Shown here: positions 10,177 to 55,924 of the stretch, piece after piece
Layout of the letters: every line of letters starts with the position of its first letter
Position numbering within the stretch: the stretch's first letter is position 1
Assembly: GCF_024436035.1 (NCBI RefSeq)
Contig: NZ_JANFNG010000001.1
Span: forward strand, 15,689-79,688
DNA: 64,000 nucleotides
Reading direction: 5' to 3'
Source of the DNA: Streptomyces humicola
Lineage (GTDB): Bacteria; Actinomycetota; Actinomycetes; Streptomycetales; Streptomycetaceae
Made by a program: the position numbers and the translations under genes
Notes under the pieces: model-generated
Database searches by the model: none
What the model saw: the letters and a program-made list of their open reading frames with translations, nothing else
Told to the model about the DNA's origin: nothing

Positions 10177-10529
10177 GTGTCGTCCTCCTACTGCACCGCA
10201 GTGTGTTCGTGTTTCCGTGGCGTTACGACCCCGTTGACGTGCGACGTCTCGTAGCGCCCTCTTCATGGAATGTAATTTGTATCGGGCACCTATGTAATTA
10301 GCATGCGTCCCCCGGCGCTGTTCGTCAACGCCGCTCGACGGCGTCCGAGATCTCGGGGCATGATTTCGGCCAAGCTGCTAAATCCCCCCTGGCCTACGGC
10401 GTGTCGCTGCGCGAGCGCCGTCGACGGGCTCTGCGGGAAACGGGAAACGGGCCGCGGTCCGGGCGCTCGTGCGAAGGGGGTGCGGGCGCGGGAGGGGCTG
10501 GATCTGATCGGCCCGCGCGGGTCCGTACC

Positions 10530-11139: not shown

Positions 11140-14025
11140 TCAGGCCGGAGGCAGCGGCTGCTCGGCCCAGATGACCTTGCCTTGAGCGGTGTAGCGGGCA
11201 CCCCAGCGTTGGGCGAGCTGGGCGACGAGGAACAGGCCACGGCCGCCTTCGTCGGTTGCGGCGGCTTGGCGTAGGTGAGGGGAGGTGCAACTGGTGTCGG
11301 AGACCTCGCAGACAAGCGTCCGGTCGCGCAGCAGGCGCACCTGGATGGGGCCGGTTGCGTGGCGGATGGCGTTGGTGAGCAGCTCGCTGAGGATCAGTTC
11401 GGTGGTGAAACAGATCTCCTGCAGTTCCCAGATGGCGAGCTGCTGGGTGACCGCAGCACGAATGTCGGGCACGATGGCCGGGTCGGCGGGGAGGTCGTCC
11501 CAGCAGGCGATGTCGAACGGATCCAGACCGTGCGGTCGTACGACAAGCAAGGTGACGTCATCATCGCTTGGTTGGGACGACGGCAGCCCTTCGATAACGG
11601 CCAGGCAGGTCTCCTCCGGCGAGCGGTGAGGCCGGCCAAGAGTCCGGCGGAGATCCTCCAGAGCGATCTCTATGGATCGCTCGCGGTCCTCCACGAGCCC
11701 GTCGGTGTAAAGGACCAGTTGGCTGGCGTCCGGCAGTTCGATTTCGGCCGACTCGAACGGGAATCCACCCAGGCCGAGCGGCGGCCCGGCGGGAAGCTCG
11801 GGAAATGTCACCGTCCCGTCGGGCTCGACGAGCGCCGGCGGAAGGTGTCCCGCACGAGCCAGTCTGCAACGCCGGGACGTCGGATCGTAGATCGCGTAGA
11901 GGCAGGTGGCTCCCACGAACACGTCTGCCTCGCTCTCCTCCCTGGCCATCTGGTCGACCAGGTCGTCGAGGTGCGCGAGCAGTTCGTCCGGGGACAGTTC
12001 GAACGTCGAAAAGTTGCGCACGGCAGTGCGCAGACGCCCCATGGCCGCTGCGGCATGGACGCCGTGGCCGACCACGTCGCCGACGACCATGGCAACGCGG
12101 GTTCCCGACAGGGGTATGACATCGAACCAGTCACCACCGACTCCGGCGTGTGCGGGCAGGTAACGGTGAGCGACTTCCAAGGCATTCTGTTCGGGTAGGC
12201 CCCGGGGGAGCAGGCTGCGCTGAAGGGTGAGGGCCAAGGTGTGCTCGCGGGTATAGCGGCGCGCGTTGTCGATGCAGACGGCGGCGAAGGCGACCAGCTC
12301 CGACGCGACGCAGAGATCGTCGTCTTCGAAAGGTACCGAGCTTTGCGAACGGTAGAAACTGGCCACCCCCAGGGCCACTCCGCGCGCGCTCAGAGGGACG
12401 GCGATGAGGGAATGGAATCCCTGGTCGAGGATCGCTCCGGCGCGTATCAGGTCCTGGGCTGCCCAACCGCCCGCTGCCTTCAGGTCCGGCTCGATCGCCG
12501 GCGAACCGCACGCCAGGCACCTGGCCTGCGGTGTGCTGGGGGCGAAGCTGACCTGCTCACCCGCGGCATAGAAGAGGGAACTGTCCCGCCCGCCCACGGC
12601 AGCACGGTGCAACATCGCGATCGTGGCTGAGGGCTCGTCCCCGCAGAGCACGGAAGGGTACAGATCGACGGTGACGACATCGGCGAAGTTTTCGATCACC
12701 ACCTCAGTCAGTTCTTCGGAGGTACGGGCCACATCCAGGGTGGTGCCGATATGGCGGACGGACTCGCGAAGCAGCTCCAGGCGGCTGCGAGCCGCGAGGA
12801 CGAGCCTGCCGACGCCGGGCTCGCCAACGGCCAGCAGCGATCTGGAGTGGCGCCCAACGACCCCGTCGGCCACTGAGGCGACGGTGGGAGCGGAGGACGC
12901 AGACCCAGGGGCCCTGGCCGTCTCGTGCCCGTCGATCCTCGACAAGGGCGTCGATATGGAATCGGGCAAGTCACCCGTCGTGAATACTGTGGCGCAGGCA
13001 GGGATGACCACCTCGACCGAGACACCCTCGGATGCGTCCGCCACCGGCCGGGCCAGGAGGGTGGCCGCGCGACCGCCGGACAGCGGCACTTCGATGGCGG
13101 CCCTTCGACCAGAGGCGATCAGCTCTGCCGCCTTCTCCTCCACGATGAGCCGGTCGGAGCCGTTCGGTATGCCGTCGGTCGGGGCACCGAGGTCGATCCG
13201 CCTTCTCCCCTCGAAGGCGGATAGCCGCGCGCGGCGTTCGGCCTCCAGGTATGCCTGCAGCAGGGCACGCTCGCGATCCGTCGTCTGTGACAGCAACCTC
13301 CGTTCGATCGCGAGGCCTGCTTTCCGGGCCATGGCTTCCAACGTCGGGGCGAATTCGGTTCTCCGGGACGCAAAGTCCAGGACACCGACGATGCGTCCGC
13401 TCAGCGGGTCGTGCACCGGAACGGCCACGCAGCTTTCCACCGTCCATGCATCTGCGAAGTGCTCATGACCGTGGACGCGAGAAATGCTCCGCTCCACGAG
13501 TGCGAGGCCGATGGAATTGGTACCGGCGAGCGACTCGTGGAAGCTGAAGCCGGGTGCGCTACCGCCGACCTCCTCCAGATATTTGGTTACCCGCGGTTCG
13601 CCGGCCAGGCATCCGAGTACCACGCCATCGCCGTCGGTGAGGGTCACCGTCACCCACGCACCCGCAATCGCCGTTGCCAATGTGTCGAGCACAGGCTGCG
13701 CCGCGCGAACAAAATCGGTGTCCAGGTCGGGTTCTCCCTGGTAGGTGGACTCGACGCCTGCTGGCGTAAGACCCAGGGATTGGCAGCGGCGCCACGAAGA
13801 CAAGATTGCGCTGCGCACCCGGGCGACTACCGGCTCACCCGCAAGGAACCGCTCACGGCCGCGCGCGACGAACTCGTCGCCCCGATTGTCGTGCGCCACA
13901 TGGATCACTTCCCACTCGTGGAAGTTTCGGCGGTCGTACAGTCCAGCACTTAACAGGCGAGGACGCAGGTGAACGGCATTCCGGGCGAATATATCCCGTT
14001 CAATCGAACGGGGAAAGTCCTCCAC
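11140..14025 (-). CDS. multi-domain signalling protein: GAF domains + PP2C/SpoIIE phosphatase + C-terminal HATPase (anti-sigma-factor kinase-like)
   Basis: AcoR-like GAF N-terminus. PP2C motifs (GGDWFDVIPL, VGDVVGHGVHAAAAMGRLR). C-terminal ELLTNAIRHA...GRGLFLV HATPase_c. Confidence 0.75.
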   Translation of the reverse strand: MEDFPRSIERDIFARNAVHLRPRLLSAGLYDRRNFHEWEVIHVAHDNRGDEFVARGRERFLAGEPVVARVRSAILSSWRRCQSLGLTPAGVESTYQGEPDLDTDFVRAAQPVLDTLATAIAGAWVTVTLTDGDGVVLGCLAGEPRVTKYLEEVGGSAPGFSFHESLAGTNSIGLALVERSISRVHGHEHFADAWTVESCVAVPVHDPLSGRIVGVLDFASRRTEFAPTLEAMARKAGLAIERRLLSQTTDRERALLQAYLEAERRARLSAFEGRRRIDLGAPTDGIPNGSDRLIVEEKAAELIASGRRAAIEVPLSGGRAATLLARPVADASEGVSVEVVIPACATVFTTGDLPDSISTPLSRIDGHETARAPGSASSAPTVASVADGVVGRHSRSLLAVGEPGVGRLVLAARSRLELLRESVRHIGTTLDVARTSEELTEVVIENFADVVTVDLYPSVLCGDEPSATIAMLHRAAVGGRDSSLFYAAGEQVSFAPSTPQARCLACGSPAIEPDLKAAGGWAAQDLIRAGAILDQGFHSLIAVPLSARGVALGVASFYRSQSSVPFEDDDLCVASELVAFAAVCIDNARRYTREHTLALTLQRSLLPRGLPEQNALEVAHRYLPAHAGVGGDWFDVIPLSGTRVAMVVGDVVGHGVHAAAAMGRLRTAVRNFSTFELSPDELLAHLDDLVDQMAREESEADVFVGATCLYAIYDPTSRRCRLARAGHLPPALVEPDGTVTFPELPAGPPLGLGGFPFESAEIELPDASQLVLYTDGLVEDRERSIEIALEDLRRTLGRPHRSPEETCLAVIEGLPSSQPSDDDVTLLVVRPHGLDPFDIACWDDLPADPAIVPDIRAAVTQQLAIWELQEICFTTELILSELLTNAIRHATGPIQVRLLRDRTLVCEVSDTSCTSPHLRQAAATDEGGRGLFLVAQLAQRWGARYTAQGKVIWAEQPLPPA

Positions 14026-14233: not shown

Positions 14234-16351
14234 TCAGTTGGCTCGTCCCGGGGGGTGTCCTCCGCTGGGGGCGAAGGGTTGTGCGTGGGCGATGAGCAAG
14301 GCGACGTCGTCGTGGTCCTCGGGGCTTCGGAGTTCTCGAAGGAGCCGGTCACAGGTGTCCTCCAGGAGCCGGTCGGGGGCGTCGAGCAGGTGGAGGAGGG
14401 CTTCGAGGCGCTGGTCAATGGGGTGGTGGCGGGTTTCGACGAGGCCGTCGGTGTACAAGACGAGCCTGTCGCCGGGGTCGAGGCGGAAAGTGGTGGTCTC
14501 AAAGAGGACACCGCCCAGTCCCAGCGGCGCGCCGGTGGGAAGATCGAGCAGTTCGGGATCCTTGCCACCGCGTATGAGAGCGGGTGGCAGGTGTCCGGCG
14601 GTGGCGATGCGACACCTGGCGGTGTGTGGATCGTAGACGGAGTAGCAGCAGGTGGCGATGTAGTTCTCCAGACCTGTGGTGATCCTGTCCAGGTGATGGA
14701 GCACGTCGGCCGGGTCGAGATCGAGGTCGGCGAAGGCGCGGGTGGCAGTGCGCAGGCGTCCCATGGTGGCAGCGGCGTCGATGCCGCTGCCCATCACGTC
14801 GCCTACCACGAGGGCGGTCTTGTCTGCGTCGAGAGGGATGACGTCGTACCAATCGCCGCCGACCTCATAGGCGGCCTGCGCGGGCAAGTACCGTGAGGCG
14901 ACTACCAGGCCAGGGTGACGAGGCGGATGTTCCGGAAGCAGGCTGCGCTGCAGGGTCTCGGCGGCGTTACGCACGCTCTGGTACCAGCGGGCGTTGTCGA
15001 TGCACACCGCCGCGCGGGAGGCAAGCTCACATGCGAGGGTGAGATCGTCCTGGTCGAGCGGCCGCGGATTGCGGGCACGCGCGAGGCCGAGGAAGCCCAG
15101 GACCTCACCGCGGGCGATGAGCGGAACCGCCAGGTAGGAGTGAATCCCGGCTCGCGCAAGGAGGGCGGCGGCGTCGGAGTCACGGGCGATGCGGGCCAGG
15201 TCTCCGTCGTCGACATGGGAGATCAGAAACGGGCAGCCGGTACGGACACAGCGAGTGGCCAGGCGGTCGGGCTCGTATGCGGCGATGTGGCCTGGCGGAT
15301 CGGCGGCCTGGACGGCTTCGGTGGAATAGGCCGCCTTCACCGCGAGCGCGCGGAACAGTGCCGGGCCGCCGCTGGGGGCAGGCGCGCGGTTGTCCAGGAC
15401 AGAGTCGAGGACATCGACTGCTGCCATGTCGGCGAGTTCTGGCACGGTGACCTCGGCCAGCTCGCAAGCGGTCTGCTCCACTTCCAAGGTGGTGCCGATA
15501 CGGGCGGAGCCGTCGGCGATCAGGGCCAGGCGTCGCCGAGCCCGGGCGGCCTCGGTGATCGCTTGGTATCGTTCAGTGACGTCAACGACCGAATCGGCCA
15601 CCCCCAGCACGTTCCCGGCGGGGTCCTCCAGTCGGTAGAACGACAGCGACCAGGCGTGGTCGTGATCCGGGTCGATGGGCGGTCGGGCGATGGTGTAGCG
15701 ATCGACCAGCGGCACGCCGGTCTCCAGGACCTTTCGCATCGCGGCCTCGAGCACGTCGACGGGCAGGCAAGGCAGGACATCGCGGTAGCGGCGGCCGAGG
15801 TGGTCCTTCGCCGGAAGGCCGTGAATCCGCTCGAGAGCGGGGTTGACGGCCACATAGCAGAGGTCGGTGTCAAGGACGGCCAGCCCGATCGGTGACTGGG
15901 AGACCAGCCGGGTGGACAACGCGAGGTCCCGCTCCACCTCGCGCAGGGTGGGCTCATCGGTGGCCAGCCCCAGGGCGTAGAAGTCCCCGCGATCATCCAG
16001 CAGCCGCATATTGCGGAATTCCACCAGGCGGGTGGTGCCGTCCTTGTGCCGGATGGGGAAGGCCCCGGCCCACGTCTCACCGCTCGCCATGACGTCGACG
16101 AACAACTTGATGATCAGATCCTGGTTCTTCTCGTGAACCAGCAACGGCGCCGCGTACTGGCCAAGCGCCTCACCGGCCGTGTAGCCGAGTAGCTCTTCGG
16201 CCTGCGGACTCCACAAGACGATGCGCCCATCAGCGTCCAACAGCACCGCGGCGACAGAGAGGAGATCCATCAGCCCGCTCGGCCGAGATGAGCCGTCCGC
16301 CGGCCGGCTGGTGTCAGTCGGACGCCTGTCGGTTGTGCTCATTGCAGGCAC
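14234..16351 (-). CDS. PAS-PAS-GAF-PP2C (SpoIIE-family) protein phosphatase
   Basis: PAS S-box blocks and a GAF region. PP2C motifs (GGDWYDVIPL, VGDVMGSGIDAAATMGRLR). Confidence 0.75.
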   Translation of the reverse strand: MPAMSTTDRRPTDTSRPADGSSRPSGLMDLLSVAAVLLDADGRIVLWSPQAEELLGYTAGEALGQYAAPLLVHEKNQDLIIKLFVDVMASGETWAGAFPIRHKDGTTRLVEFRNMRLLDDRGDFYALGLATDEPTLREVERDLALSTRLVSQSPIGLAVLDTDLCYVAVNPALERIHGLPAKDHLGRRYRDVLPCLPVDVLEAAMRKVLETGVPLVDRYTIARPPIDPDHDHAWSLSFYRLEDPAGNVLGVADSVVDVTERYQAITEAARARRRLALIADGSARIGTTLEVEQTACELAEVTVPELADMAAVDVLDSVLDNRAPAPSGGPALFRALAVKAAYSTEAVQAADPPGHIAAYEPDRLATRCVRTGCPFLISHVDDGDLARIARDSDAAALLARAGIHSYLAVPLIARGEVLGFLGLARARNPRPLDQDDLTLACELASRAAVCIDNARWYQSVRNAAETLQRSLLPEHPPRHPGLVVASRYLPAQAAYEVGGDWYDVIPLDADKTALVVGDVMGSGIDAAATMGRLRTATRAFADLDLDPADVLHHLDRITTGLENYIATCCYSVYDPHTARCRIATAGHLPPALIRGGKDPELLDLPTGAPLGLGGVLFETTTFRLDPGDRLVLYTDGLVETRHHPIDQRLEALLHLLDAPDRLLEDTCDRLLRELRSPEDHDDVALLIAHAQPFAPSGGHPPGRAN

Positions 16352-17001: not shown

Positions 17002-18459
17002 TCACCGCCGGTGTGCCGAGGCGGCTGTTGAGCTGGGCGTCGTTTGGTATGGCGCCGTGGCGTGCTGGGCTGCGTAGAGCAGCGCGGGCTTCATCTTCGG
17101 CCAGAAGTAGCTGTCCTGGCAGGAGTACGGCGGCGTGAATCCGTCGCAGCCGCGGTTGTCGACGTCGCCGATCTCGATGGTGAAGCTGGCGAGGCCGAGC
17201 TTGTCGTAGGTCCAGTCGTCGGTACCGCCGGACGCGTCGTAGAGGATCTCGCCGGCCTGGCCGTACTGGTAGCCGGTGATCGAGCCCAGCTGGGCGGCGA
17301 TGCCGCGCAGCGCGCTGTCGTTCCCGGTGTGCACGGTGGAGTCGTACTCCCATGGGAACAGCACCATGCTGGCGTCGCTGTGCATGGTGATCATCATGCC
17401 CCGGGCGGTGTCCGGTGCCGGGTCGGTGACGCCGCTGCCGGTGCGCACCGCGGGGTACAGCTCGCGGAAGAGCCCCTCCAGCGCGGTGTTCTCGGTCTCG
17501 GAGTCCGCGGCGGGGCCGTCGTACTCCTGGTCGCACGGCTGGTGCGAGATTCCGGTGGTGTCCCAGTGGGTGCCCGCGTTGCGGTTGAGGTCGACGCCGA
17601 TCTGGCTCTCCGCGCTCGCGCCGCAGGACGAGCCATTGGTGTCGTCGGCGTTCTTGCGCTGCAGAACGGGGTTGTCACCCCCCTGTGCGACCATGTCGAC
17701 GCCGTCGGGATTGGCGTCGGGAACGACCCACATCTCGGTGGTGTCCATGAGCTTGGTGATGTCCGAGTCCTTGCCGTACTGACCCGTCAACTCGTCGATC
17801 CAGCGCCACGAGATCTCCCCGGTGGCGATCTCGCGCGCATGGATCTGGCTCATCAGGAAGAACCGCGGTTTGGCCGAGTTGGGGTTGAGCTGACAGTCCC
17901 CCTGCTGCATCTTCGTGATGCAGATGGCCTTGAGATCCTCACCGCCCTTCCCCTGCTTCTTCAGCCACGACTGCCCGTACGTCACGACTGTCGCGAGGTC
18001 CGGGTGCTGGCTGACGACCTGGTCCATGTGCGCGTACTGCGCGTCCACGGTGTGATAGCCGCCGTCGTATGTGTCGTCCACGCCGGTGGCATGGGGCTTG
18101 TCCAGCCTGAGGGGCTTCGGCTTGGGCATCGACTTGACGACCTTCGGCGAGAAGCCGAGCGTGCGCAAGCCGCTTGCGGCCGTCGAATCGCCCATCACGA
18201 ACAGGTCGTTGCCCTGCCGGTGTTCCATCAGGTCGTACCCGTCGCGCATCAGCGTCTGGGCGTCCTGCTCAAGGTGGTGCGTCCGCACCCGGTAGACGAA
18301 CACGGTGTTCTGGGTGGCGTTCTGGGCTGTGTCGCCGGCCGCCCGCGCGGGGTTGGCGTACGTGGTGACGTGGGCCGATGCGGCCTGGGGCAGTAGGGCC
18401 GCGGCGACCGCGACAACCGCTCCGGCGGCTATGCCCGCCGCCAGGCGTTTGCGTGGCAT
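17002..18459 (-). CDS. secreted M14 zinc carboxypeptidase (carboxypeptidase T-like)
   Basis: Signal peptide (MPRKRLAAGIAAGAVVAVAAALLP). M14 motif QIHAREIATGE. The start lies inside the longer ORF. Confidence 0.8.
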   Translation of the reverse strand: MPRKRLAAGIAAGAVVAVAAALLPQAASAHVTTYANPARAAGDTAQNATQNTVFVYRVRTHHLEQDAQTLMRDGYDLMEHRQGNDLFVMGDSTAASGLRTLGFSPKVVKSMPKPKPLRLDKPHATGVDDTYDGGYHTVDAQYAHMDQVVSQHPDLATVVTYGQSWLKKQGKGGEDLKAICITKMQQGDCQLNPNSAKPRFFLMSQIHAREIATGEISWRWIDELTGQYGKDSDITKLMDTTEMWVVPDANPDGVDMVAQGGDNPVLQRKNADDTNGSSCGASAESQIGVDLNRNAGTHWDTTGISHQPCDQEYDGPAADSETENTALEGLFRELYPAVRTGSGVTDPAPDTARGMMITMHSDASMVLFPWEYDSTVHTGNDSALRGIAAQLGSITGYQYGQAGEILYDASGGTDDWTYDKLGLASFTIEIGDVDNRGCDGFTPPYSCQDSYFWPKMKPALLYAAQHATAPYQTTPSSTAASAHRR

Positions 18460-18937
18460 GGGTGGGGGACCTTCCGTGGGGGGACAGGTGCCCCGCAAAT
18501 ATGGCATGCCCGCGTCACGCGCGAGAATGTGTCGTCAAAGGAGACGCACAGCTTTCGGCCGTTCGCCGACGCCGCCGGTCGGCTACTCCAGCGGTTGGTC
18601 GGTCCGGATGACCTTGCCGGTCTCGGCGTAGCGGGTGCCCCAGCGCTCCGTGAACTGGGCAACCAGGACGAACCTTCGTGTTTCGGTTCGGGCTGACTGA
18701 TCTGGGGGATCCCCGTGTTGGTGGCCGCGAGGCTGCTGTCGGAGGGCGGGCATGTCGAGGGCCCGGCGCCATGGCCGGGTGCTCCTGGGGATCCTCGGGT
18801 CGTGGGTGGTCGGTGGCGGGCTCGTCTCTCAAGTGGCCGGTCGGGGCAGTGCCGGCAGGCGGCTGAACGCCGCGTTCACGCGAGCGCCTCGCCGGGATTC
18901 CGGGGGCCGCAGGTCAGGCGGCCTGCGTGAGAGCGCC

Positions 18938-19954
18938 TCAGTACTGCTCGGTTTCGATGTACCCCGTGTCGTCGTCGGCGCCGAAGGCGCCCGCGGCAGC
19001 GGTGGTGTCGAATCCGGGCGGGCTGTCCTTGAAGGCCAGGCCCATACCGGCCAGCTTCGCCTTGACCTCGTCGATCGACTTCGCACCGAAGTTGCGGACG
19101 TCGAGCAGGTCGGCCTCGCTGCGCGCCACGAGCTCGCCCACGGAGTGGATGCCCTCGCGCTTGAGGCAGTTGTAGGAACGGACGGTCAGCTCGAGCTCCT
19201 CGATCGGCAGTGCGAGGTCAGAGGCTAGGGCGGCGTCCGTCGGGGACGGGCCCATGTCGATGCCCTCGGCGTCGATGTTGAGCTCGCGGGCGAGCCCGAA
19301 GAGCTCGACCAGCGTCTTACCGGCCGAGGCCATCGCGTCACGCGGGCGCATGGCCTGCTTGGTCTCGATGTCGAGGATCAGCTTGTCGAAGTCGGTGCGC
19401 TGCTCGACACGGGTCGCCTCGACCTTGTAGGTGACCTTGAGCGCCGGGCTGTAGATGGAGTCGACCGGGATCCGGCCGATCTCCTGGCCCTGCTGCTTGT
19501 TCTGGACCGCGGAGACGTAGCCGCGACCGCGCTCGACGGTCAGCTCCATCTCCAGCTTTCCCTTGCCGTTGAGGGTGGCGAGGACCAGGTCCGGGTTGTG
19601 CACCTCGACACCGGCCGGCGGGGCGATGTCGGCGGCGGTGACCAGACCGGGCCCCTGCTTGCGCAGGTACATCACGACCGGCTCGTCGTGCTCGGAGGAG
19701 ACGACCAGGCTCTTGATGTTGAGGATGAGGTCGGTCACGTCCTCCTTGACGCCCGGCACGGTGGTGAACTCGTGCAGCACGCCGTCGATCCGGATGCTGG
19801 TGACGGCAGCGCCGGGGATGGAGGAGAGGAGAGTGCGACGCAGGGAGTTACCGAGGGTGTAGCCGAAGCCCGGCTCCAGCGGCTCGATGACGAACCGGGA
19901 GCGGTATGCGTCCACGACCTCTTCGGTGAGAGACGGACGCTGAGCGATCAGCAT
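18938..19954 (-). CDS. rpoA: DNA-directed RNA polymerase alpha subunit
   Basis: 338 aa from [14 protein letters not shown] to the C-terminal alpha-CTD. It matches canonical actinomycete RpoA almost residue for residue. GGAGG RBS 9 nt upstream. No rpsK or rplQ neighbours. Confidence 0.9.
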
Positions 19955-20412
19955 GAGGTATTGCCTCCAGTTTTCGGCGCCCGCTATGTGATGCCGGTCC
20001 ACCGAGCGGTAGCCCGGTGTTGATACTGCAAGGCTACGGGCGTACGAGCTGAATAGCTTCGTACCACCCGTAATGGGGCGTGGCGAGCGCGCGACGATCT
20101 TCGTCAACCTGCGGCATCGATCGGAGTGCCAGGCGGTGGCGCGGCCGGAGCGCGATCTACCGGGCCGCCGCCCCGGGCGTCGAGGCTCATGTCCGGGTAG
20201 CGGACAGCGAACGACAAGTGGGGAGGCCATCGGCGTTCACTTCTGACTACCACGGTCACGCCTCAGTCACCGGACGCTGCTACGCGCGCAGCAGGGGGGC
20301 GTTTCATCCAGAGATGCAGGGAACGCAGAACGGCAGTCGACGATCGAAGCGTACGTTGTGCACGCCGGGCCGCACGTACCTACTGCGTCTCGGCTCGCCA
20401 CCGGAATCGTGA

Positions 20413-21018
20413 CTACTGAAAGCGGCCGCGATGCCGGGCGGCCTTGGCGCTGTTGCCGCAGCGTTGCATGGAGCACCACTTGCGGGGCTTTCCCTGAGCG
20501 GTGTCCAGATAGATCATGCGGCAGATCTCGGAGTCGCACTCTCGGAGCCGCCCTCGCAGGTCCGGGGCGGTGATCAGGGTGATCGCGTCGCGCGCGATCA
20601 CGGAGAGCAGCGCGGGAGCCGCGAGGCGGGGGCTGCCACCCGATTCGGGGAGTCCGTCCCTGCCGATGCGCAGCCTGGGTGCCGGCGGCTCGACCTGGGC
20701 CAGGCGGTTGACCAGGTCCACCGATTCCGGCTGCGGCGTGCGGCTGTGGAGGTAGGCGACGACGACGTCGTACGCGGCGGAGCGGAGGTCGTGGAGTGCG
20801 GTGACGAGCGCCGGCGTGGCGTCGTCGGGGTCGAGGGCGAGGTTGACCCCTTCGCACCAGGCTCCCAGGCGGTCGAGGCCGTCGAGTCGTTCGATCGGGG
20901 AGCTGGGCCGGCGGCCGACCGTGGCGATGAGGTTGAGCGACAGCGTGCCGCCGTCGAAGCGCAGCTCGCGAAGGCGGGCCGTGTTCCGGGTGCGGGGGGT
21001 TGATACGCCGGCGCTCAT
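20413..21018 (-). CDS. CGNR zinc-finger (ABATE domain) protein
   Basis: C-terminal CxxC...CGNSAKAARHRGR CGNR motif. Confidence 0.7.
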   Translation of the reverse strand: MSAGVSTPRTRNTARLRELRFDGGTLSLNLIATVGRRPSSPIERLDGLDRLGAWCEGVNLALDPDDATPALVTALHDLRSAAYDVVVAYLHSRTPQPESVDLVNRLAQVEPPAPRLRIGRDGLPESGGSPRLAAPALLSVIARDAITLITAPDLRGRLRECDSEICRMIYLDTAQGKPRKWCSMQRCGNSAKAARHRGRFQ

Positions 21019-21175
21019 GGCATGATAGTAACCTGAAGAACGGTTACTAAGGAAAGTGTGCGAAACCCTCACCCTGGCCGACGTCGGGGACGATCGCGGT
21101 CAGCGGGACATCCCATTGCCCCGACCACCTCGCGTGAGCCTCCTCATCCGCCTCGTTCAACCGGAAGGACGTGTC

Positions 21176-22108
21176 ATGCGTATCGCTGTCGTGGGAGCCG
21201 GCGGTGTCGGAGGGTATTTCGGGACCCGTCTCGCCGAGGCAGGCAACGAGGTGACGTTCGTCGCCCGTGGCCGGCATCTTCGGGCCGTTCGCGAGCACGG
21301 CCTGCTGGTGCGCAGCCCGCTGGGAGAGTTCCGGGCACCGGCCGCGTCGTTCGTCCCGCGCATCGGGGACGTGGATCCCGTCGATGTGGTGCTGGTGGCG
21401 GTGAAGCTGTGGGACACCGAGGAGGTGGCCGCCCAGTTGCGGCCGCTGGTGGACGCCGGTGCCAGGGTGATCTCGTTGCAGAACGGCGCTCACAAGGACA
21501 GCGTCTTGCGCCGCTATCTGCCGCCGGAGGCGGTGTGGGGCGGTGTCTGCTACATCTCCGCGGTCATCGAGGAGCCCGGGGTCGTCTCCCATCGAGGGCA
21601 GATGCAAAAGCTGGTCTTCGGCACATACGGCGACCAGGAGGACGCCGGGGCACGGAACTTCCTCGATGCGTGCGTGAAGTCCGGTCTCCAGGCGGAGATC
21701 AGCGCGGACATCGCTCGGGCCATCTGGGAGAAGTTCGTTTTCCTGGTGGGGCTTTCGGCGACAACTACGGTGGTGCGGCAGCCGATTGGCGTCATCCGGC
21801 GTGACACCAGGACACGGGCGTTGCTGCGCGACGTGATGGCTGAGGCAGTCGCCGTCGGCCGAACGGCCGGGGTGAACCTCGACTCCGGATTCGCCGACGA
21901 CCGGCTGGCGTTCTGCGACACCCTGCCGGAGTCGATGACCTCGTCCATGCACCACGACCTGGACCAAGGCAACCGGCTGGAACTGCCGTGGCTCAGTGGC
22001 GGTGTCGTCGACCTCGGCCGGGAGCTGGGCGTCGACACTCCCCGCAACCGGACGGTTGCCGACATCCTGGCCCCCTACACGTTCGGCCGGCCGGCCGTGA
22101 ACGGTTGA
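21176..22108 (+). CDS. 2-dehydropantoate 2-reductase (ApbA/PanE family) oxidoreductase
   Basis: N-terminal Rossmann MRIAVVGAGGVGGYFG. ApbA_C-like C-terminal half. Confidence 0.7.
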   Translation: MRIAVVGAGGVGGYFGTRLAEAGNEVTFVARGRHLRAVREHGLLVRSPLGEFRAPAASFVPRIGDVDPVDVVLVAVKLWDTEEVAAQLRPLVDAGARVISLQNGAHKDSVLRRYLPPEAVWGGVCYISAVIEEPGVVSHRGQMQKLVFGTYGDQEDAGARNFLDACVKSGLQAEISADIARAIWEKFVFLVGLSATTTVVRQPIGVIRRDTRTRALLRDVMAEAVAVGRTAGVNLDSGFADDRLAFCDTLPESMTSSMHHDLDQGNRLELPWLSGGVVDLGRELGVDTPRNRTVADILAPYTFGRPAVNG

Positions 22109-22211
22109 CGTTCACTCCCTTGGGTTGGCGGTGGTGACCTCCCACTAAGGATGAAGGCCAGCGGGTGCTGACTTCGTCGGTATCCAGACCGCGGTGAAGC
22201 AATCCGTCCCC

Positions 22212-22568
22212 TCAGCTCGCTGGCGTACTCCGGAAGGCGGGCCAGTTCCCACGCCGCCCGCTCAGTGGTGCGGCCGCCGGTCTGCACGGCGAACCAGGAC
22301 GTCTCCCCGAGGTCCTTGTGCCGGTGATCCGGTCGCTCGCCGTGAGTGCGCAGGCATTTACGGCGGCGCGCGGGAAGTACGCCACCGGGTACCGGCCGGG
22401 CTCGTGCAGCAGGATCACGTCCTCGCTGTCGGCGATCCACTCGCCGTTGAAGAGCACACGCATCCGCCGACGCAGTCGCTCGGCGAACAGCAGCCGCTCG
22501 GGTAGCGGATCAGACGTCAGGAGCCGTCCAGTCGGCGGGTCCGAGGCCGCCCGTAACCCAGGATGCAC
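22212..22568 (-). pseudogene. DUF427 domain protein, frameshifted
   Basis: The N-terminal part (RVLFNGEWIADS...YFPRAAV) is in one frame. The continuation (HKDLGETSWFAVQ...RAAWE) is in the overlapping minus-strand ORF 22075..22440. The frame switches near 22340. Confidence 0.4.
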
Positions 22569-22686
22569 TTCGGTGGGCCACCGCTCGACCCGTGCGTTAT
22601 TTATGAATGTTGGCCGTCCAGCGCCGAGCCGGCTCTGATGCCGACGGCGGTGACTGCTTGTGGGTGAACGATGAGACTACGCCCTC

Positions 22687-23367
22687 GTGCCGACGACAAC
22701 TCGTCGATCGGGCCCATTATGGTTGGTGTTTGTGCCGTTGAGCTGTGCGTTTGTGAACCTCAAACCCGGAGTGGGAAAGACGACCAGTGCTGTCTGGCTG
22801 GCCCATGCGCTGCACGAGTCGGGACTTTCGCCGCTGCTGGTCGACGGCGACCCCGCGGCCTCCGCGCTGCGCTGGAGCGAACTGGCCGAAGGCTTTCCGT
22901 TTCCCGTGATCGCCCTTCCGGTGGGGGACGTCCACCGGCGCGTGAACGACTTCCTCGGCGAACGGCAGGCCGTCGTGCTCGACGCGCCGCAGCTGGAGGA
23001 CCACGCCCGCATCACCCGCAGCATCATGAGGTACGCGAGCGAGTGGATCGTGCCGGTGACCCCCGCGCCCATCGAACTGGACCGGATGGCCCCCATCCGC
23101 GGAGAGATGGAAGACGTGCAGTCCTTGCGCGCCGAGCCGGCCCGCACTGCGGTCCTGCTGAATCGCACCAATCGCCCCGATGCCACGCGCACCGGCCCCG
23201 ATGCCGACGCTCGTGAGGCGCTCACCGAGTGGGGCTTCGACGTGCTGGACACCCAGATCGCGCGGCTCGACTTGTATGCCCAGTCGTTCGGGAGCGCGGT
23301 CGAAGTCACAGGCTCGGCGTACATGGACCTCGCGGATGAACTCATCAAGCGTCAGGAAGAGGCATGA
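22687..23367 (+). CDS. ParA/MinD-like partition ATPase (deviant Walker A NLKPGVGKTT)
   Basis: Walker A variant, DGDP and PxxxLD blocks. Orphan, not at an origin locus. Confidence 0.6.
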   Translation: MPTTTRRSGPLWLVFVPLSCAFVNLKPGVGKTTSAVWLAHALHESGLSPLLVDGDPAASALRWSELAEGFPFPVIALPVGDVHRRVNDFLGERQAVVLDAPQLEDHARITRSIMRYASEWIVPVTPAPIELDRMAPIRGEMEDVQSLRAEPARTAVLLNRTNRPDATRTGPDADAREALTEWGFDVLDTQIARLDLYAQSFGSAVEVTGSAYMDLADELIKRQEEA

Positions 23368-23609
23368 ACCAGCGCAAGGACAGCTACCGTGCGGCACTGC
23401 GGCGCGGACAGGACATCGCCGCACCCAGGCCCGCCAAGGTCACCACACTGGACAGCAGATACGTCCGGGTGACCATCGAGGTGGACCCGGACCTACGGCG
23501 CGACCTGACGCGATGGGCGGGCACGCCGGTCTCCGCGCTGGTGCTCACCGGTACCGCCCTTCTACGCACCGTCGCCAGGGTGGCCGGATCCGCCGACGCG
23601 GAGGCCTGA
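23364..23609 (+). CDS. small ribbon-helix-helix (RHH)-like protein translationally coupled to ParA (ParG-like candidate)
   Basis: ATGA start/stop overlap with ParA. VRVTIEVDPDLRRDLTRWA resembles a CopG/RHH beta-strand-helix. Confidence 0.35.
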   Translation: MNQRKDSYRAALRRGQDIAAPRPAKVTTLDSRYVRVTIEVDPDLRRDLTRWAGTPVSALVLTGTALLRTVARVAGSADAEA

Positions 23610-23711
23610 CCAGGCCCGCCGGCGGGGTGCGGGCACGGGGGCAGCACATCAGCCCCGACGACACGGGTTTTCTGCTGTCGGGACTCAATAAGTGGACAGG
23701 GGGGCGAGACG

Positions 23712-23815
23712 GTGTCCGTGCCAGGGCCCGGGGTGAGCAAGACAGCGGCAGATTGGCTGGTTGGTCGTTACCGGGTGATCGAGCAAATCGGGCGGGGCGG
23801 TATGGGCGAGCCGCA
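23712..23815 (+). pseudogene. Ser/Thr protein kinase N-terminal fragment
   Basis: LVGRYRVIEQIGRGGMGE is the Gly-rich ATP loop of Hanks kinases. The sequence diverges immediately afterwards. Confidence 0.35.
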
Positions 23816-24515
23816 GCACCAGGGCCTGGATGGACCGGATGGTCCGCGAGTGTCCTGGTCGCTTCGGCCTGCGCTGCTGGGCGTTGCCCTTGCCGCCGGA
23901 CAGGCGTGTCAGGCTCATCGATCGGGCGGCATGCTGCACACCCTGCCGTTCCTGATCCCCAGTACCGCGGACGCGCCGGCCGTGGCGCTCGCCACGATCG
24001 CCTTCGAACTGGTGGCCCTGGCCTGGATCCGATGGCTTCGGTACCGGCTTCCTCCGCTCCTTCGCCGTCATCGCGATCGGTGGGTCGGTCATCACGAACG
24101 TCAGCGCCGTGCTCGGCGCGGTCAGCTGACCAGGCAGGTCCCCGCAGCAGCGCTGCCAGCGGCCCATGGCTCCAACAGTGCATGGCCCCGGCGCGGTCGG
24201 TGAGCACGGCTACGTGCCGTCTCACAGGGTCGCATGACGACGGATGCGCACGGTCGTTACGGGATCCAGCTTCGAGGGCCCCGACAAGCCCTGCAAAGAA
24301 CCAGCAAAGGTGTGATGCCCGGCCTCGCCGGGCGCCACGGAAACCTCATCGCTGAGGTGTCCGCAGGAATGGCCCCTGCCTACGCTTTACAAGGCAAAGG
24401 GGCCCTTAGACCTTCGGATTCCGTTGACGCCAGGGGGTTGTGGCGACGTTTTAGCCATGGCACGCTCCACTGCGTCGCGACACCGAGATCACCGCCTGAC
24501 CAAACGCAACCGCGA

Positions 24516-24944
24516 AGGGCCACCGTGTATTTCGAGACGCTCAAAGCCAAGATCCACCGTGCCACCGTCACCCAGTCGCACCTCAACTACGTCGGCTCCA
24601 TCACGATCGACCTCGATCTGATGGAAGCGGCAGGCATCCGTCGCCACGAGAAGGTCGACCTGGTCAACGTCACCAACGGCGCCCGTCTGTCGACCTACGT
24701 CATCGAAGGACCCAGGGGATCTGGCGTCATCGGGGTCAACGGCCCATCCGCCCGGCAAGCCCAGGTCGGCGACCTCGTCCTGATCGTGTCGTACGCCTCG
24801 GTCACGCCGGAGGAGGCCGATGGGTTCGAGCCGAGGGTCGTCTTCGTCGACAGCAAGAACAAGATCACTGGCTTCGGCGGGGACGCAGCCGAAGTGCCGC
24901 CCGGGAGTGGCCTCGTGCGTGGCGACCAGATAGCCGGTGTCTGA
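24516..24944 (+). CDS. panD: aspartate 1-decarboxylase (pyruvoyl-dependent)
   Basis: GTG start. KIHRATVTQ...YVGSITID carries the Gly-Ser self-cleavage site, then GSGVIGVNG. 142 aa. Confidence 0.85.
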
Positions 24945-25046
24945 GCGGATGGGCCCCGGGGCGCGCCGGGCCCGTCCGTATCACCCTGCTCCTCAGGCAG
25001 CCTCCCCCGCCTCCTCGGCGACATCTCGACCCCGAACGGGAATAAA

Positions 25047-26441
25047 TTGACCTCCACGCTTTGCGCATCCACGGTGCTGAAGAACGCTCTCACGCACTAC
25101 CACGCAGAACTGCAGGACGCTATGGCGGCCTTGGAAGGCGACCGCGTCGAAGGCGACGAAGCCTTCTCGCCCGCCTTCCGCCTGCCCGACCCCAGTGCCG
25201 CCCTCGAGCGGTTCTTCTCGGTGTCCGACATCGGCGTCACCGAACTGCCCGCCTATCATGGTCACGCCCTCCGCCTTCTCGACTTGATGCGGAACCCGGG
25301 AACGCATACCACCAAGACGCTCGCCTCGCTCACCATCATCGCCCGGGCCGTGCGGCACATCACCGAGACCGGTGAACGCATCATGATCGTCACCCCGTCG
25401 TCCGCGAACAAGGCCACAGCCCTGCGTGACGCGGTTCATCGAGCCATTAGCGCTGGACTGGTGACGGAGAATCAGCTGCAGATCACCAGTGTGGTGCCCG
25501 CGGTGTCCACCGCCAAGCTCTGGTCGTCACCGTTGAGCGAGCACGCTGAGCTACGACGTCGCAATCCGCTGGTGGTGCACGAATCGGAAGAGCCGGCCTC
25601 GGTCAAGGAACTGGCGTCCGCGTTCGCGGCCGAAAACGCCGAACGTCTCCAAAGACGGTACGGCGTCCGTATCTGGTACACGCTCGGGCTCGACAACTAC
25701 CGGGCCGCGGACATGATCCGCGCGTTCGCCGAGCGGGACCTGCTGCCCGGAGCGGACAGCGGCACTCCAACCCGTACCCATGTCCACTCCGTCTCCAGCG
25801 CCTTCGGCCTGCTCGGTCATGACCTGGGGCACCGCAAGGTCACGGAAAACGGCTGCCGAACGCTGCCGCAGGCCCGCTATTTCCTCGTCCAGCACCTCGG
25901 CACTCCGGACATGGTGCTCAGTCTCCGCCATGGCACACACGACCGCGGAAACCTGCCCGTGTACCGCCTGGACCAGGCCGAGGGCCTGTACCGACAGGAC
26001 GAGGACCCGCACTTCCCTGCGACGACGTTTGATCCCGAGGAACAGCTCGATCCCACTTTCTACACCCGCCGTCCGGTCACCTCTGCGCAGATGGATAGCA
26101 TCATCGCCGCGCAGGGCGGAGGCGGCGTTGTCGTCTCGCTGCACGAGTGCCTGAGCCGGTACGCCGAAGTGCGCGCCCTGCTGGCCGATGCCGATGTCAC
26201 GTTGCCCGTCGACCCCCGACGGCTGCGCGAGTGGTCGCTCGTGATGGCGGTCACCGGAACCCTGAACGCCGCCGACCGCGGGCTGCTGCCGGACAGTGGC
26301 GACGTGCTGATCCACGGCTCCGGCAGCTACAGCGACCGGGATTACCATCCAGTGCCTGCCCATCACCGTTTCACGGCGGCGGACATGACGGCTCTTGCAG
26401 GCCACGTCGAGGACGCAGTCCGCGCCGCAACCTCCCGCTGA
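25047..26441 (+). CDS. divergent fold-type-II PLP-enzyme-like protein (threonine synthase / Trp-synthase-beta superfamily-like)
   Basis: By-eye alignment to ThrC. GVTELP aligns to EGGTPL. NPGTHTTKT aligns to NPTGSFKDR, and the Lys is retained. TPSSANKATAL...ISAGL aligns to ASTGNTSASAAAY..AGI, and the Asn is retained. Spacing is conserved. Confidence 0.35.
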   Translation: MTSTLCASTVLKNALTHYHAELQDAMAALEGDRVEGDEAFSPAFRLPDPSAALERFFSVSDIGVTELPAYHGHALRLLDLMRNPGTHTTKTLASLTIIARAVRHITETGERIMIVTPSSANKATALRDAVHRAISAGLVTENQLQITSVVPAVSTAKLWSSPLSEHAELRRRNPLVVHESEEPASVKELASAFAAENAERLQRRYGVRIWYTLGLDNYRAADMIRAFAERDLLPGADSGTPTRTHVHSVSSAFGLLGHDLGHRKVTENGCRTLPQARYFLVQHLGTPDMVLSLRHGTHDRGNLPVYRLDQAEGLYRQDEDPHFPATTFDPEEQLDPTFYTRRPVTSAQMDSIIAAQGGGGVVVSLHECLSRYAEVRALLADADVTLPVDPRRLREWSLVMAVTGTLNAADRGLLPDSGDVLIHGSGSYSDRDYHPVPAHHRFTAADMTALAGHVEDAVRAATSR

Positions 26442-26482
26442 ACCCGCCGCGTCCGCCGGTAACCATACGAACAGGAGCAGTC

Positions 26483-27235
26483 ATGCCCAGGCAACCGGAC
26501 AGTCTGCTGTCCCTCACCGACTTCAACGGCACGCCATTGGCGGAAGAGATGGTGTGGAAGACGTTCCACGGCCTGATGGAGCGCCATGGCTATGTCTTCA
26601 TGAGTAACGTGCCCGACGCGTTCGATCCGGTGGCCTTCTGCAAGAGGCTCGGCGACTTCGTCCCTCAGTACACCGGTGTGCTGGTCGGCGACGTCACCCC
26701 GGAGCCGGGAATGGAGGAATTCTATCACGCGGGAAACACCAAGCCCCTGTATCCGCATTCAGAAGGCTACGACTTCGAAGGTCTGCCTCCCCGCTACCTC
26801 GCCCTGTGGTGCGAGACCCCCAACACCGGCGCAGGCGGCGAGACGACGATCGCCGACGCCCGCGCCTGGACTGAGTCGCTGGCCGAGGCCGACCGCGCGT
26901 ATCTGCGCGAGCGCATCTGGGCGTGGGAGACCACGGACGCGATGCGTCATCTCGGCCTCGACCTGCACCCCGAGCACCCGGTCATCGAGGACCACCCGGA
27001 CGGCACCATCGTCCGCTACTCCTTCAACAACCTGGTGCGCGGCGGGGATGATCGGATCGGGCCGCTGCTCGACAGCGCGAAGGAGTACTTCGAACGCGAG
27101 CACGTGGCGATCCAGTACGAGCGGCGAGACATGCTCGTCTTCGACAACTGGCGCATGCTGCACGCCCGCAACGCGTTCACCGACACCGGGCGCCACCTGC
27201 GCCGTATCCAGATCGCCCACCGGATCACGGCATGA
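26483..27235 (+). CDS. TauD/TfdA-like Fe(II)/2-oxoglutarate-dependent oxygenase
   Basis: AGGAG RBS. HSEGYDFEG (HxD/E), distal His, and RxxxxxH near the C-terminus (LHARNAF...RHLRRIQ). Confidence 0.55.
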   Translation: MPRQPDSLLSLTDFNGTPLAEEMVWKTFHGLMERHGYVFMSNVPDAFDPVAFCKRLGDFVPQYTGVLVGDVTPEPGMEEFYHAGNTKPLYPHSEGYDFEGLPPRYLALWCETPNTGAGGETTIADARAWTESLAEADRAYLRERIWAWETTDAMRHLGLDLHPEHPVIEDHPDGTIVRYSFNNLVRGGDDRIGPLLDSAKEYFEREHVAIQYERRDMLVFDNWRMLHARNAFTDTGRHLRRIQIAHRITA

Positions 27236-28320
27236 CCGCTGCAGCACCGGCGGGCGTCGCCGTGGTGGGCGGCGGATCGCTGGCCCGCAGCATCTGTTAC
27301 TCGCTGGCACTCGCAGTCGATCCGCCGCCCGGCACCGTGACCGTTCTCGCCCGTTCCGCACGGGCGGCGAGGGAGATCGCGTGCATCGCCAACACGCGAG
27401 CCGCGACCTCCGCGTCCCCCACTCGGTTCACAGCCGAGGTCCTGGACGCCTCGGACCACGGGACGGCTGCCCGCTTGCTGCAACGCATCCGACCGCGCGT
27501 CGTACTCCACTGCGCGTCACTGCAGTCACCTTGGGAGAGCACACGCGCTCCATCCGCCTGGACCAAGCTCCTAGCAGCCGGCGGGTTCGGCATCGCTCTA
27601 CCGCTGCACGCGGTACTCGCCCGGGACATCGCCCGAGCAGTCCAACTCAGCGGTGTCCCCGCGATGTTCGTCAACGCCTGTTATCCGGACGCAGTCAACC
27701 CTCTTCTGCACGCCGAGGAACTGCCCGCGTTCTGCGGTGTGGGGAACTCCGCAACGCTGGCGGCCTCGCTCCACGCCGTACTGCAACCGCAGGCGGACGA
27801 GCGGCTGCGTATCCTCGCCCACCACGCCCATCTGCACGCTCCCGTAGATCCCTCGGACGAGGTCCGGGTGTGGCTCGGTGACAGGTCGGTGGAGCGGGTG
27901 GGTGAACTGCTCGCAAGCCACCGTGCCTGCTCCCGCGAGGAGTTGAATGCGGTGACGGGACACACGGCTGCCGTGCTCGCTTCCCGCCTGGCTGCCGGTA
28001 CCGAGGTACGCGCCAACCTTCCCGGGCCGCTGGGACTGCCGGGCGGCTACCCCGTCCGCATCCAGGATGCCCGGGTCACGCTTGACCTGCCGAACGGCCT
28101 CACTCCGGAAGAGGCCGTCGCGTGGCAGCTGCGCATGGCCGAGCACGACGGCGTCGTGGTCACGCCTTCCGGCGATGCGCGCTTCGGCCAACGGGCCCAA
28201 GAGGCCCTGTCCGAACATCTGGCGGACGTACCGGAGTGCCACAGAGCACCGGAGGTGAAGGTGCTGGCGTTGCAACTACTGAGCCTGCGCGAGAAGTTGC
28301 GCAGAAAGCCGTCCGTGTGA
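27232..28320 (+). CDS. NAD(P)-binding Rossmann-fold oxidoreductase (saccharopine-dehydrogenase/OCD-like, uncertain)
   Basis: ATGA overlap with the upstream gene. N-terminal GVAVVGGGSLARS dinucleotide-binding motif. Confidence 0.4.
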   Translation: MTAAAPAGVAVVGGGSLARSICYSLALAVDPPPGTVTVLARSARAAREIACIANTRAATSASPTRFTAEVLDASDHGTAARLLQRIRPRVVLHCASLQSPWESTRAPSAWTKLLAAGGFGIALPLHAVLARDIARAVQLSGVPAMFVNACYPDAVNPLLHAEELPAFCGVGNSATLAASLHAVLQPQADERLRILAHHAHLHAPVDPSDEVRVWLGDRSVERVGELLASHRACSREELNAVTGHTAAVLASRLAAGTEVRANLPGPLGLPGGYPVRIQDARVTLDLPNGLTPEEAVAWQLRMAEHDGVVVTPSGDARFGQRAQEALSEHLADVPECHRAPEVKVLALQLLSLREKLRRKPSV

Positions 28321-28656
28321 CGTCCGCTGCCCGCCGGGGTGCGGCGGTCGGGCACGGGCGAGGACAACGGCTCAACCTTGAAGGTGGCAGGCGAGCCGGC
28401 CGCCACGCCTGTTGGAGACAGCGGCGAGCCGTCCCGAGGCCCGCGTGCTGCTCGCCCTGGCCCCGACCCCGGCGCGGGCGGCCCGCCTGTCCATGGCACA
28501 GCTCCGGTCGGGTCTCGAGCGAGCGGGCCCCAGCCGCGGTATCGAGGCCGAAGCCGAGCGGCTGCGCGAGGTCTTCCGGGCCGACTACGCCCACGAATCA
28601 AGGGCGCCCCCTGCCGCCGCGGCGGAAGGGGGCGCCCTCGTACGCGTGCCGGTGGA

Positions 28657-30084: not shown

Positions 30085-30603
30085 GGATGTCTCTCCCTTG
30101 AATCGCTGAGATCCAGGCCCCGGGGACGGGCCGCAGTCGACTCTGCTGGCGGGTTCGAGTCAGAGGGAGGATGGATTGCGTGAACAACGCATCAACTGAA
30201 AGGGAATTAGTATTGAGTTGACGGGGTGGGTCGGCCGGACTGTGCGGCGGATGTGTCGTCCGGCCCGGTCATGCCGTTCTGGCCGCGGCGCAGCTGTTCC
30301 TCGAGCGACTGAAGAAATTCGGGGTTGTCGTCGGGGGCGACTCAGCCCGCCGGTGGTTCGGTGAGGGGCCTCCGGCCGCGAACACCGGCTCCGGGGCCAC
30401 CTGCGTGCCTTCGGCATGTCCCGCGTCCGGCTGCGCGAGGTGGCGCATGCGGGGGAAATGCCGCGGGTGCGGCAGAGCCGCTTGTAGCCGCACAGACGTG
30501 GCGGTGAGGTTGCGGGTGCCGAAGACCCCCTCCGCATCCCGTGACCCACGTGTTCTCATGAGTGGCCGACGTTCGCCGGATGGGCGTGTCAGGCTGATCG
30601 ATC

Positions 30604-53843: not shown

Positions 53844-53895
53844 GCATGTACTGGGATTTCCTGCTACCTGCTGAGCAAGAGCTGAAGGAGACGAC

Positions 53896-55845: not shown

Positions 55846-55924
55846 GCGGCGGAGTGTGGGCTGGAGGGTGAGCTCACGTCCGTAGATGTAACTCGAAACA
55901 ATCTCAAGGAGAACGGAGAGAATT

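Follow-up and report, generated by a model that had tools for sequence, protein, structure and literature searches.

The 64,000-nt stretch of DNA analyzed here (the window) comes from Streptomyces humicola (RefSeq assembly GCF_024436035.1, contig NZ_JANFNG010000001.1, forward-strand positions 15,689–79,688) and contains a complete rpoA gene for the α subunit of RNA polymerase (RNAP) at 18938–19954 on the minus strand. The coding sequence (CDS) starts with ATG, ends with TGA and specifies a 338-residue protein that consists of an N-terminal domain (α-NTD), a linker, a C-terminal domain (α-CTD) and an acidic C-terminal tail. The protein matches the NCBIfam RpoA equivalog profile NF003514 from end to end (residues 1–338 against profile positions 1–338; 648.7 bits, cutoff 434) and also matches TIGR02027 (378.7 bits, cutoff 227.8). 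Three Pfam domains, RNA_pol_L (PF01193), RNA_pol_A_bac (PF01000) and RNA_pol_A_CTD (PF03118), are found above their gathering scores and form the architecture of a dimerization domain with an insert domain (NTD) followed by the α-CTD. Moreover, the S. coelicolor RpoA chain of PDB entry 7vpd aligns over residues 1–338 with an E-value of 4e-209 and ~95% identity. These matches bear out the full-length, 338-residue RpoA that an earlier, sequence-only reading of the stretch had proposed. The good ribosome-binding site noted in that reading is also present, as a Shine–Dalgarno sequence, GGAGG (19964–19968, minus strand), that lies 9 nt 5′ of the ATG and is conserved in the leader alignment (A1) described below.

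The canonical reference was the consensus of 58 operon-borne rpoA copies of the Streptomycetaceae. The window RpoA departs from this consensus by 15 substitutions, and its acidic tail lacks two residues. Ten derived states (E16A, V171A, V194L, V196I, A245S, I286V, L308F, P318T, D323G and F336Y, numbered by alignment column) fall on columns that are invariant or nearly so among the canonical copies. The product had been called essentially identical to canonical RpoA; it is highly similar, but the wording is slightly overstated in view of these ten changes and the ~95% identity. The substitutions are conservative apart from E16A, P318T and D323G. The putative DNA-contact residues of the α-CTD (R259, N262, C263, G290, K292 and S293) are intact in the window RpoA and invariant in all 29 RpoA proteins encoded outside the operon that were compared. 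We take these residues to be the equivalents of Escherichia coli R265, N268, C269, G296, K298 and S299, using a numbering offset of six. Given its ~95% identity to a subunit whose structure was solved within RNAP, the window RpoA would be expected to dimerize and to nucleate the assembly of the β and β′ subunits.

The window rpoA is located outside the ribosomal operon, as had been proposed. A tblastn search with RpsM, RpsK, RpsD and RplQ found no match to the corresponding genes anywhere in the 64-kb window. For comparison, one genome per species was scanned, and the 80 best rpoA loci were retained by rank of similarity to the window protein. Copies without rpsM, rpsK, rpsD or rplQ within 6 kb are called orphans, and operon-borne copies are called canonical. 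In this set, 56 of the 80 loci keep rpsM-rpsK-(rpsD)-rpoA-rplQ at the expected spacing and 24 are orphans, a fraction that does not estimate prevalence because the loci were selected by similarity. The orphan hosts belong to Streptomyces, Streptacidiphilus and Actinacidiphila, and some of the orphans lie on complete chromosomes. A rearrangement of the ribosomal-protein neighborhood, which had been offered as one explanation of the locus, disagrees with the operon context kept in 56 of 56 canonical loci. It also disagrees with the coexistence of an orphan (L058) and a canonical copy (L041) in one assembly, that of Streptomyces sp. NPDC026673, and with S. avermitilis MA-4680, for which a second rpoA away from the ribosomal operon has been noted (Mukhamedyarov et al. 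2011, PMC3294249). It is highly improbable that the window gene is the sole rpoA of its genome and that the ribosomal-protein genes have been relocated. All non-orphan Streptomycetaceae loci retrieved retain the operon arrangement, and the window gene carries orphan-lineage markers that are absent from canonical genes, lacks the L17 leader and has plasmid-type partition genes adjacent to it, as described below.

Orphan copies are also found on plasmids. A blastn search of PLSDB identified rpoA on 22 Streptomyces plasmid records at 85–91% DNA identity, with two copies on some records. Many plasmid copies are positioned 30–85 kb from the end of a linear plasmid, and all ten copies inspected were orphans without ribosomal-protein neighbors. 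Their contexts vary from stress genes to a backbone of single-stranded-DNA-binding protein (SSB) and terminal-protein genes 8 kb from a telomere. In complete chromosomes, arm-located orphans occur at 7.84 of 9.86 Mb in S. noursei and at 9.0 of 9.46 Mb in strain A1-5, with conserved synteny. No neighbor gene conserved among the orphan loci was found, and a tblastx comparison between the window and the orphan loci yielded nothing beyond high-GC noise. Viral and phage collections contained no Streptomyces-like rpoA. A large protein search was uninformative, as clustering at 90% identity put both types of Streptomyces RpoA, canonical and orphan, in a single cluster (2133 members). Orphan rpoA is a heterogeneous set that persists and moves on linear plasmids, megaplasmids and chromosome arms of Streptomyces. 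As judged from these comparisons, the window rpoA is no isolated case, nor has it been freshly duplicated. RNA genes were observed near two other orphans: a bacterial small signal recognition particle RNA gene (7282–7376) ~270 nt downstream of rpoA in L063, and a tRNA gene (5738–5822) ~180 nt upstream of rpoA in L061.

Homology between the window gene and the canonical loci starts ~120 nt before the start codon and stops at the stop codon. The leader contains two conserved hairpins on the minus strand. Hairpin 1 (20029–20072) reads TACGGGTGGTACGAAGC-TATTCA-GCTCGTACGCCCGTA, then GTAGCCTTG, and marks the 5′ limit of homology with the canonical loci; its consensus is GGGCGGTACGG...CCGTACCGCCC, then GTACCCTTG. 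Hairpin 2 (19975–19996) reads CGGCATC-ACATAGCG-GGCGCCG and is present 5′ of both canonical and orphan rpoA in alignment A1, which comprises 67 sequences (leaders of loci L003–L086). The hairpin 2 consensus, GGC(G/A)TC-AAATAGC-GG(C/T)GCC, is located ~12 nt ahead of the ribosome-binding site and its AAATAG loop hardly varies. In the window leader, the interval between hairpins 1 and 2 accommodates an extra GC-rich hairpin, CACCGGGCTACCGCTCGGTG (20000–20019, minus strand), at a variable insertion site that is filled in some canonical leaders too.

The base pairing of the leader is supported by covariation. In hairpin 2, 94% of the helix cells are paired, and compensatory changes are clear at column pairs 197:218 (GC 24, CG 22, UA 5), 199:216 (GC 56, AU 6) and 201:214 (GC 47, AU 19). 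For hairpin 1, the evidence given is changes on both sides at all seven pairs of helix 2. Over the 67 leaders, 88% of the cells are paired versus 33–44% with slid 3′ partners, and the covariation score is 0.25 versus 0.03–0.07 in the slid controls; the observed values were reached by 0 of 500 shuffles. No Rfam family matches the rpoA leader of the window or of the canonical loci. The two-hairpin rpoA leader is a candidate cis-regulatory or processing element across the Streptomycetaceae. Because the structured leader is retained, it argues that the orphans are expressed through the post-transcriptional route of the housekeeping rpoA. A promoter reading of the conserved leader elements TTGCAG...TAG was dropped, as their spacing differs by tens of nucleotides between species.

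On both sides of this unit, the window sequence departs from that of canonical loci. The 340-nt upstream spacer (20073–20412, minus strand) is similar to no other locus and contains no σ70-like promoter match and no Rfam match; if rpoA has its own promoter, it should lie in this spacer. The 430-nt downstream spacer (18508–18937, minus strand) has no terminator-like site and no exceptional fold and, by Rfam search, is devoid of the L17 leader that follows canonical rpoA. This element, the L17-Actino-Proteobacteria leader RF03132, is found between canonical rpoA and rplQ (7083–7138 in L003 and 7142–7197 in L004) but Rfam recognizes it neither in the window nor in any of the 21 orphan loci tested. 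Because RF03132 is missing after every orphan tested, every orphan ends between the stop codon and the L17 leader. The boundaries of the window unit match those of 24 genome orphans and 10 plasmid orphans. On the alignments, each orphan is an rpoA leader plus CDS that appears to have been cut from between two ribosomal-protein units. The options for such narrow boundaries, common to several apparent lineages, are a single origin with later gene conversion, or selection that disfavors the carriage of ribosomal-protein gene fragments. An assembly artefact, in which a chimeric join put rpoA in a foreign context, would be expected to bring the sequence of a canonical gene, usually accompanied by pieces of rpsK, rpsD or rplQ. 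The window copy has neither, the arrangement recurs in many complete, independent assemblies of plasmids and chromosomes, and no repeats occur at the boundaries; such an artefact is barely credible.

At the DNA level, the closest copy to the window rpoA is the canonical L003, with 92.1% identity, a synonymous divergence (dS) of 0.226 and a ratio of nonsynonymous to synonymous divergence (dN/dS) of 0.11. Among the orphans, L026 comes closest (91.0%); identity to the plasmid copies is ~90.4%. The dS values of the window gene to all compared copies are 0.23–0.30, compared with a typical between-species median of 0.286. Because the divergence is at the between-species level, the window rpoA is no recent copy of any sampled gene. 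In the protein, E16A, A245S and L308F are common to the window copy and the linear-plasmid orphans L001, L002 and L095, and E16A, L308F and V196I are common to the window copy and L026. The canonical copies contain E, A, L and V at these four positions in 58 of 58 cases. The sublineage defined by E16A/L308F, with or without A245S, is otherwise found on linear plasmids of 0.16–1.3 Mb. Window rpoA and L026 are grouped in 83% of the bootstraps of a nucleotide neighbor-joining (NJ) tree.

These data bear directly on the idea, favored in the sequence-only reading, that the chromosomal rpoA of this genome was recently duplicated into an arm-like region. A recent duplication would fit the very high protein similarity to canonical RpoA, the near-canonical codon bias and the NJ nucleotide tree, which places the window copy near the canonical L003 and L004. 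In addition, the orphan L058 clusters with L041, the canonical copy of the same genome, and local duplication or gene conversion therefore does occur. However, even the closest canonical copy is separated from the window gene by a dS of the between-species kind. Furthermore, three of the ten changes at invariant or nearly invariant columns are common to plasmid orphans of other strains, and the unit boundaries are identical to those of all other orphans. A recent duplication is unlikely on this evidence. Because of the dS of 0.226 to the closest canonical copy and the E16A, A245S and L308F states in common with plasmid orphans, the window rpoA belongs to an older accessory lineage and was probably acquired with mobile DNA.

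The orphans as a whole do not form a single clade. At least three further orphan groups are distinguished by I269V/V276L (with or without M304L), by A248V/E255D/I269V and by V84D/V85L/A241T/S271T/L306M, and the orphans are interspersed with canonical genes in the trees. A single clean orphan clade was rejected, as the NJ trees and the derived-residue patterns indicate several lineages with probable recombination. Two copies have mixed characters. L050 (S. bobili), which has a canonical context, shows orphan-type residues at two positions (V248 and V269) and clusters with the orphans L056 and L028. L001 contains lineage-1 markers in its body, but its tail and its nucleotide sequence ally it with another plasmid lineage. 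The patterns of L050 and L001 suggest gene conversion or recombination between rpoA copies. The start codon also varies: most I269V-type orphans start with GTG, in contrast to the ATG of the window lineage and of every canonical copy. The GTG codon may lower translation initiation in the I269V-type orphans.

The orphan copies are under purifying selection. The median dN/dS is 0.044 between canonical copies, 0.097 between canonical and orphan copies and 0.134 between orphans, and the window gene exhibits values of 0.10–0.15 against the 15 closest sequences by dS. Orphan protein evolution is ~2–3-fold faster than canonical protein evolution and is still strongly constrained. For the window gene, the effective number of codons (ENC) is 28.7 and the G+C content at third codon positions (GC3) is 0.923. 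The canonical medians are 28.3 (ENC) and 0.933 (GC3), and the orphan medians are 29.3 and 0.912, respectively; the ENC difference between orphan and canonical copies has a p value of 2e-4. In codon bias, the window gene stays close to canonical rpoA, which is highly expressed. Compared with canonical variation, the non-consensus states of the orphans fall disproportionately in the linker and CTD (odds ratio 2.6, p = 0.026).

The faster evolution and the slightly relaxed codon bias of the orphans are compatible with a redundant duplicate that drifts toward a pseudogene and lacks a separate function. Divergence is strong in some copies, such as the orphan L086 with 30 derived changes, and the window contains further genes that are truncated, for example a fragment of a SpoIIE gene at 34755–35375. 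Nevertheless, none of the 33 orphans inspected has a frameshift or internal stop codon, and their dN/dS of ~0.1–0.13 is far below 1. The mapped functional residues and the leader structure are kept, and orphans are syntenic across related species (S. noursei and strain A1-5). Decay without function is an unlikely account of the window copy, and the gene is real and probably functional, as judged by its preserved sequence features.

The genes that flank rpoA are those named in the sequence-only reading, and Pfam matches confirm both. Upstream and co-directional, at 20413–21072 (minus strand), lies a putative regulator gene with ABATE and zf-CGNR domains. Downstream and also co-directional, at 17002–18507 (minus strand), lies a Peptidase_M14 zinc carboxypeptidase gene, with a counterpart of 73% identity on pSCAT, a megaplasmid of S. 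cattleya. In the window, this carboxypeptidase gene and a phosphoesterase gene (28657–30159) are ~10 kb apart, and their homologues are 1.3 kb apart on pSCAT (L091, 844190–875464). The ~10-kb block that lies between them in the window, as delimited by the pSCAT comparison (18508–28656), contains rpoA, the CGNR gene, panE, a ParA-like gene with a small open reading frame (ORF), panD and a DUF6002 gene. No direct or inverted repeats flank rpoA or the ~10-kb block, and therefore no transposon or att-site mechanism can be proposed.

The ParA-family gene and an overlapping 81-codon ORF are positioned 2.7 kb upstream of rpoA (22687–23609, plus strand). The window ParA is 84.6% identical to the ParA of a 678-kb linear Streptomyces plasmid and ~50% identical to the ParAs of small Streptomyces plasmids. 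Because of the ParA similarity and the synteny break relative to pSCAT, the region can be described as plasmid-like or plasmid-derived, on a plasmid or a chromosome arm. This description agrees with the accessory setting that had been noted earlier for the window, which is accessory-type DNA of ~67% G+C with regulators, secreted hydrolases and PAS/GAF-SpoIIE phosphatases. The overlap of the ParA gene and the 81-codon ORF is a layout typical of a plasmid partition module. The 81-codon ORF has no Pfam match; it was also observed after ParA on the 678-kb plasmid.

Several other features were observed in the window. Apparent extra primary-metabolism genes comprise asnB (8332–10377), panE (21056–22108), panD (24234–24944), a transketolase gene (48309–50360) and a 6-phosphogluconate-dehydrogenase-like gene (50542–51591), and because of these copies rpoA is not the sole housekeeping-type gene in the region. 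Tandem GAF/PAS-SpoIIE (PP2C) phosphatase genes are located at 11140–14025 and 14234–16351, one with a HATPase anti-sigma-like domain, and the SpoIIE fragment mentioned above, a SpoIIE-only ORF of 206 residues, may be a truncated third copy. The G+C content drops to ~60% at ~52000–59000 versus 66–72% elsewhere, beginning with a gene of the methane/phenol/alkene hydroxylase family that includes a YHS domain (52332–53843). This low-G+C segment is probably a separately acquired island.

Duplicated rpoB genes of actinomycetes, such as rpoB(R) of Nonomuraea, encode a β subunit with substitutions in the rifampicin-binding region and have effects on antibiotic production. The window rpoA resembles rpoB(R) in being an extra gene for a core RNAP subunit in a large-genome actinomycete. 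By analogy, the window rpoA could be a specialized resistant or decoy target against a compound or a phage or plasmid effector that acts on α. Carriage on mobile DNA, the presence of the plasmid copy L084 among defense and toxin–antitoxin genes, and the enrichment of orphan changes in the linker and CTD are in keeping with this idea. Unlike β, α offers no drug-site rationale of this kind, and the window rpoA is not set in a biosynthetic cluster. The Pfam survey of the window found no biosynthetic core, whether of polyketide synthase, nonribosomal peptide synthetase or other type, near rpoA, and the gene lies neither in nor adjacent to a biosynthetic gene cluster, where a self-resistance copy would be located. 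Biosynthetic cluster genes and defense genes are absent within 10 kb of the window rpoA, no neighbor is conserved across the orphans and the substitutions are conservative. To our knowledge, there is no α-targeting agent in Streptomyces. A resistant or decoy target is very unlikely.

With good confidence, we interpret the window gene as an intact accessory rpoA paralogue that belongs to a plasmid- and arm-borne class, was probably acquired with mobile DNA and presumably coexists with the operon copy. The unit consists of the native rpoA 5′ leader, with its two hairpins and ribosome-binding site, and the complete CDS, free of ribosomal-protein genes. The accessory α would be translated from its native leader and would assemble into the RNAP core as a homodimer or as a heterodimer with the chromosomal α. 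The resulting RNAP isoform would be slightly altered in the N-terminus, the β′-proximal region, the linker, the α-CTD and the tail. Candidate roles of such an isoform are dosage, backup and altered contacts with activators or plasmid promoters.

Some observations weigh against this interpretation. The canonical operon copy of the source genome is presumed, and the expression of the window rpoA and its incorporation into RNAP are inferred from sequence. Consensus scans for promoters and terminators around the gene recognized nothing. With substitutions so few and conservative, a distinct function may not exist and the copy could be merely redundant. The orphan fraction comes from a genome set that was selected for similarity to the window protein. 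Adding L001 to the pair of window rpoA and L026 has an amino-acid bootstrap of 45%, which is only moderate support, and L001 groups with another plasmid lineage at the nucleotide level; recombination or mosaicism is therefore suggested.

The accessory paralogue proposed here can be compared with canonical rpoA and with two described cases of rpoA duplication. Canonical Streptomyces rpoA and the window gene are alike in architecture, length class, leader hairpins, ribosome-binding site and ~95% of their residues. The window gene differs in the missing ribosomal-protein flanks and L17 leader, the ten substitutions at invariant or nearly invariant columns and the tail, which is two residues shorter. 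The second rpoA of S. avermitilis is, like the window copy, a highly similar extra copy outside the ribosomal operon of a Streptomyces genome, and has been described as a fairly recent duplication without drastic substitutions (PMC3294249). That report contains a mention and a tree of the S. avermitilis copy, without context, lineage or function. In contrast to this account, the window copy groups with plasmid-borne orphans, and the phenomenon is widespread and involves several lineages.

The rpoA1 and rpoA2 genes of Francisella (α1 and α2) offer a precedent for a polymerase with two non-identical α subunits. As is presumed for the source genome of the window, Francisella has a pair of rpoA genes, of which one lies away from the ribosomal operon. 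After duplication, evolution reportedly accelerated in both Francisella paralogues, with changes at dimerization residues and at β/β′ contact residues, and only the α1/α2 heterodimer assembles efficiently in vitro (PMC3294249). Unlike the Francisella genes, the window copy is ~95% identical to the canonical protein, has conservative changes, is accessory in the genus and is located on mobile DNA. Its 15 substitutions and two-residue tail deletion fall short of the strong divergence of the Francisella type, as judged from the number and kind of the changes.

In the full-text literature searched, no functional study of an extra-operonic Streptomyces rpoA was found, and the mention in PMC3294249 was the only one. 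The existence of such a gene is thus already known from one unanalyzed mention, and the locus in the window is a further case. The presence on many plasmids, the several lineages, the purifying selection, the shared structured leader and the constant unit boundaries are undescribed in the searchable literature. The orphan class is moderately interesting, and the window instance is ordinary within the class.

The recurrence of orphan rpoA has practical and biological implications. The rpoA gene is used as a single-copy marker in phylogenetic and multilocus sequence analysis and also as a marker of completeness and contamination. Recurrent, recombining extra copies at 88–97% identity can mislead such marker analyses. 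The rpoA leader hairpins, for which Rfam has no family, constitute a testable candidate cis-regulatory element. The RNAP core is commonly regarded as constant in any one cell, with Francisella as the textbook exception. If the orphan copies are expressed, Streptomyces could produce alternative core enzymes, and some of the host's machinery for transcription could be plasmid-borne, which would bear on how accessory genomes and antibiotic clusters are regulated. A more speculative and rather doubtful extension is that linear plasmids and chromosome arms spread alternative α subunits that co-assemble with the host α into mixed RNAP populations. Through the differences in α-CTD, linker and tail, transcription would be biased toward accessory or plasmid genes or particular activators, and the leader, which every orphan retains, would keep the extra copy under the post-transcriptional control of the housekeeping gene. 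If this were true, heterogeneity of the RNAP core would be a common, horizontally transferable trait in the genus.

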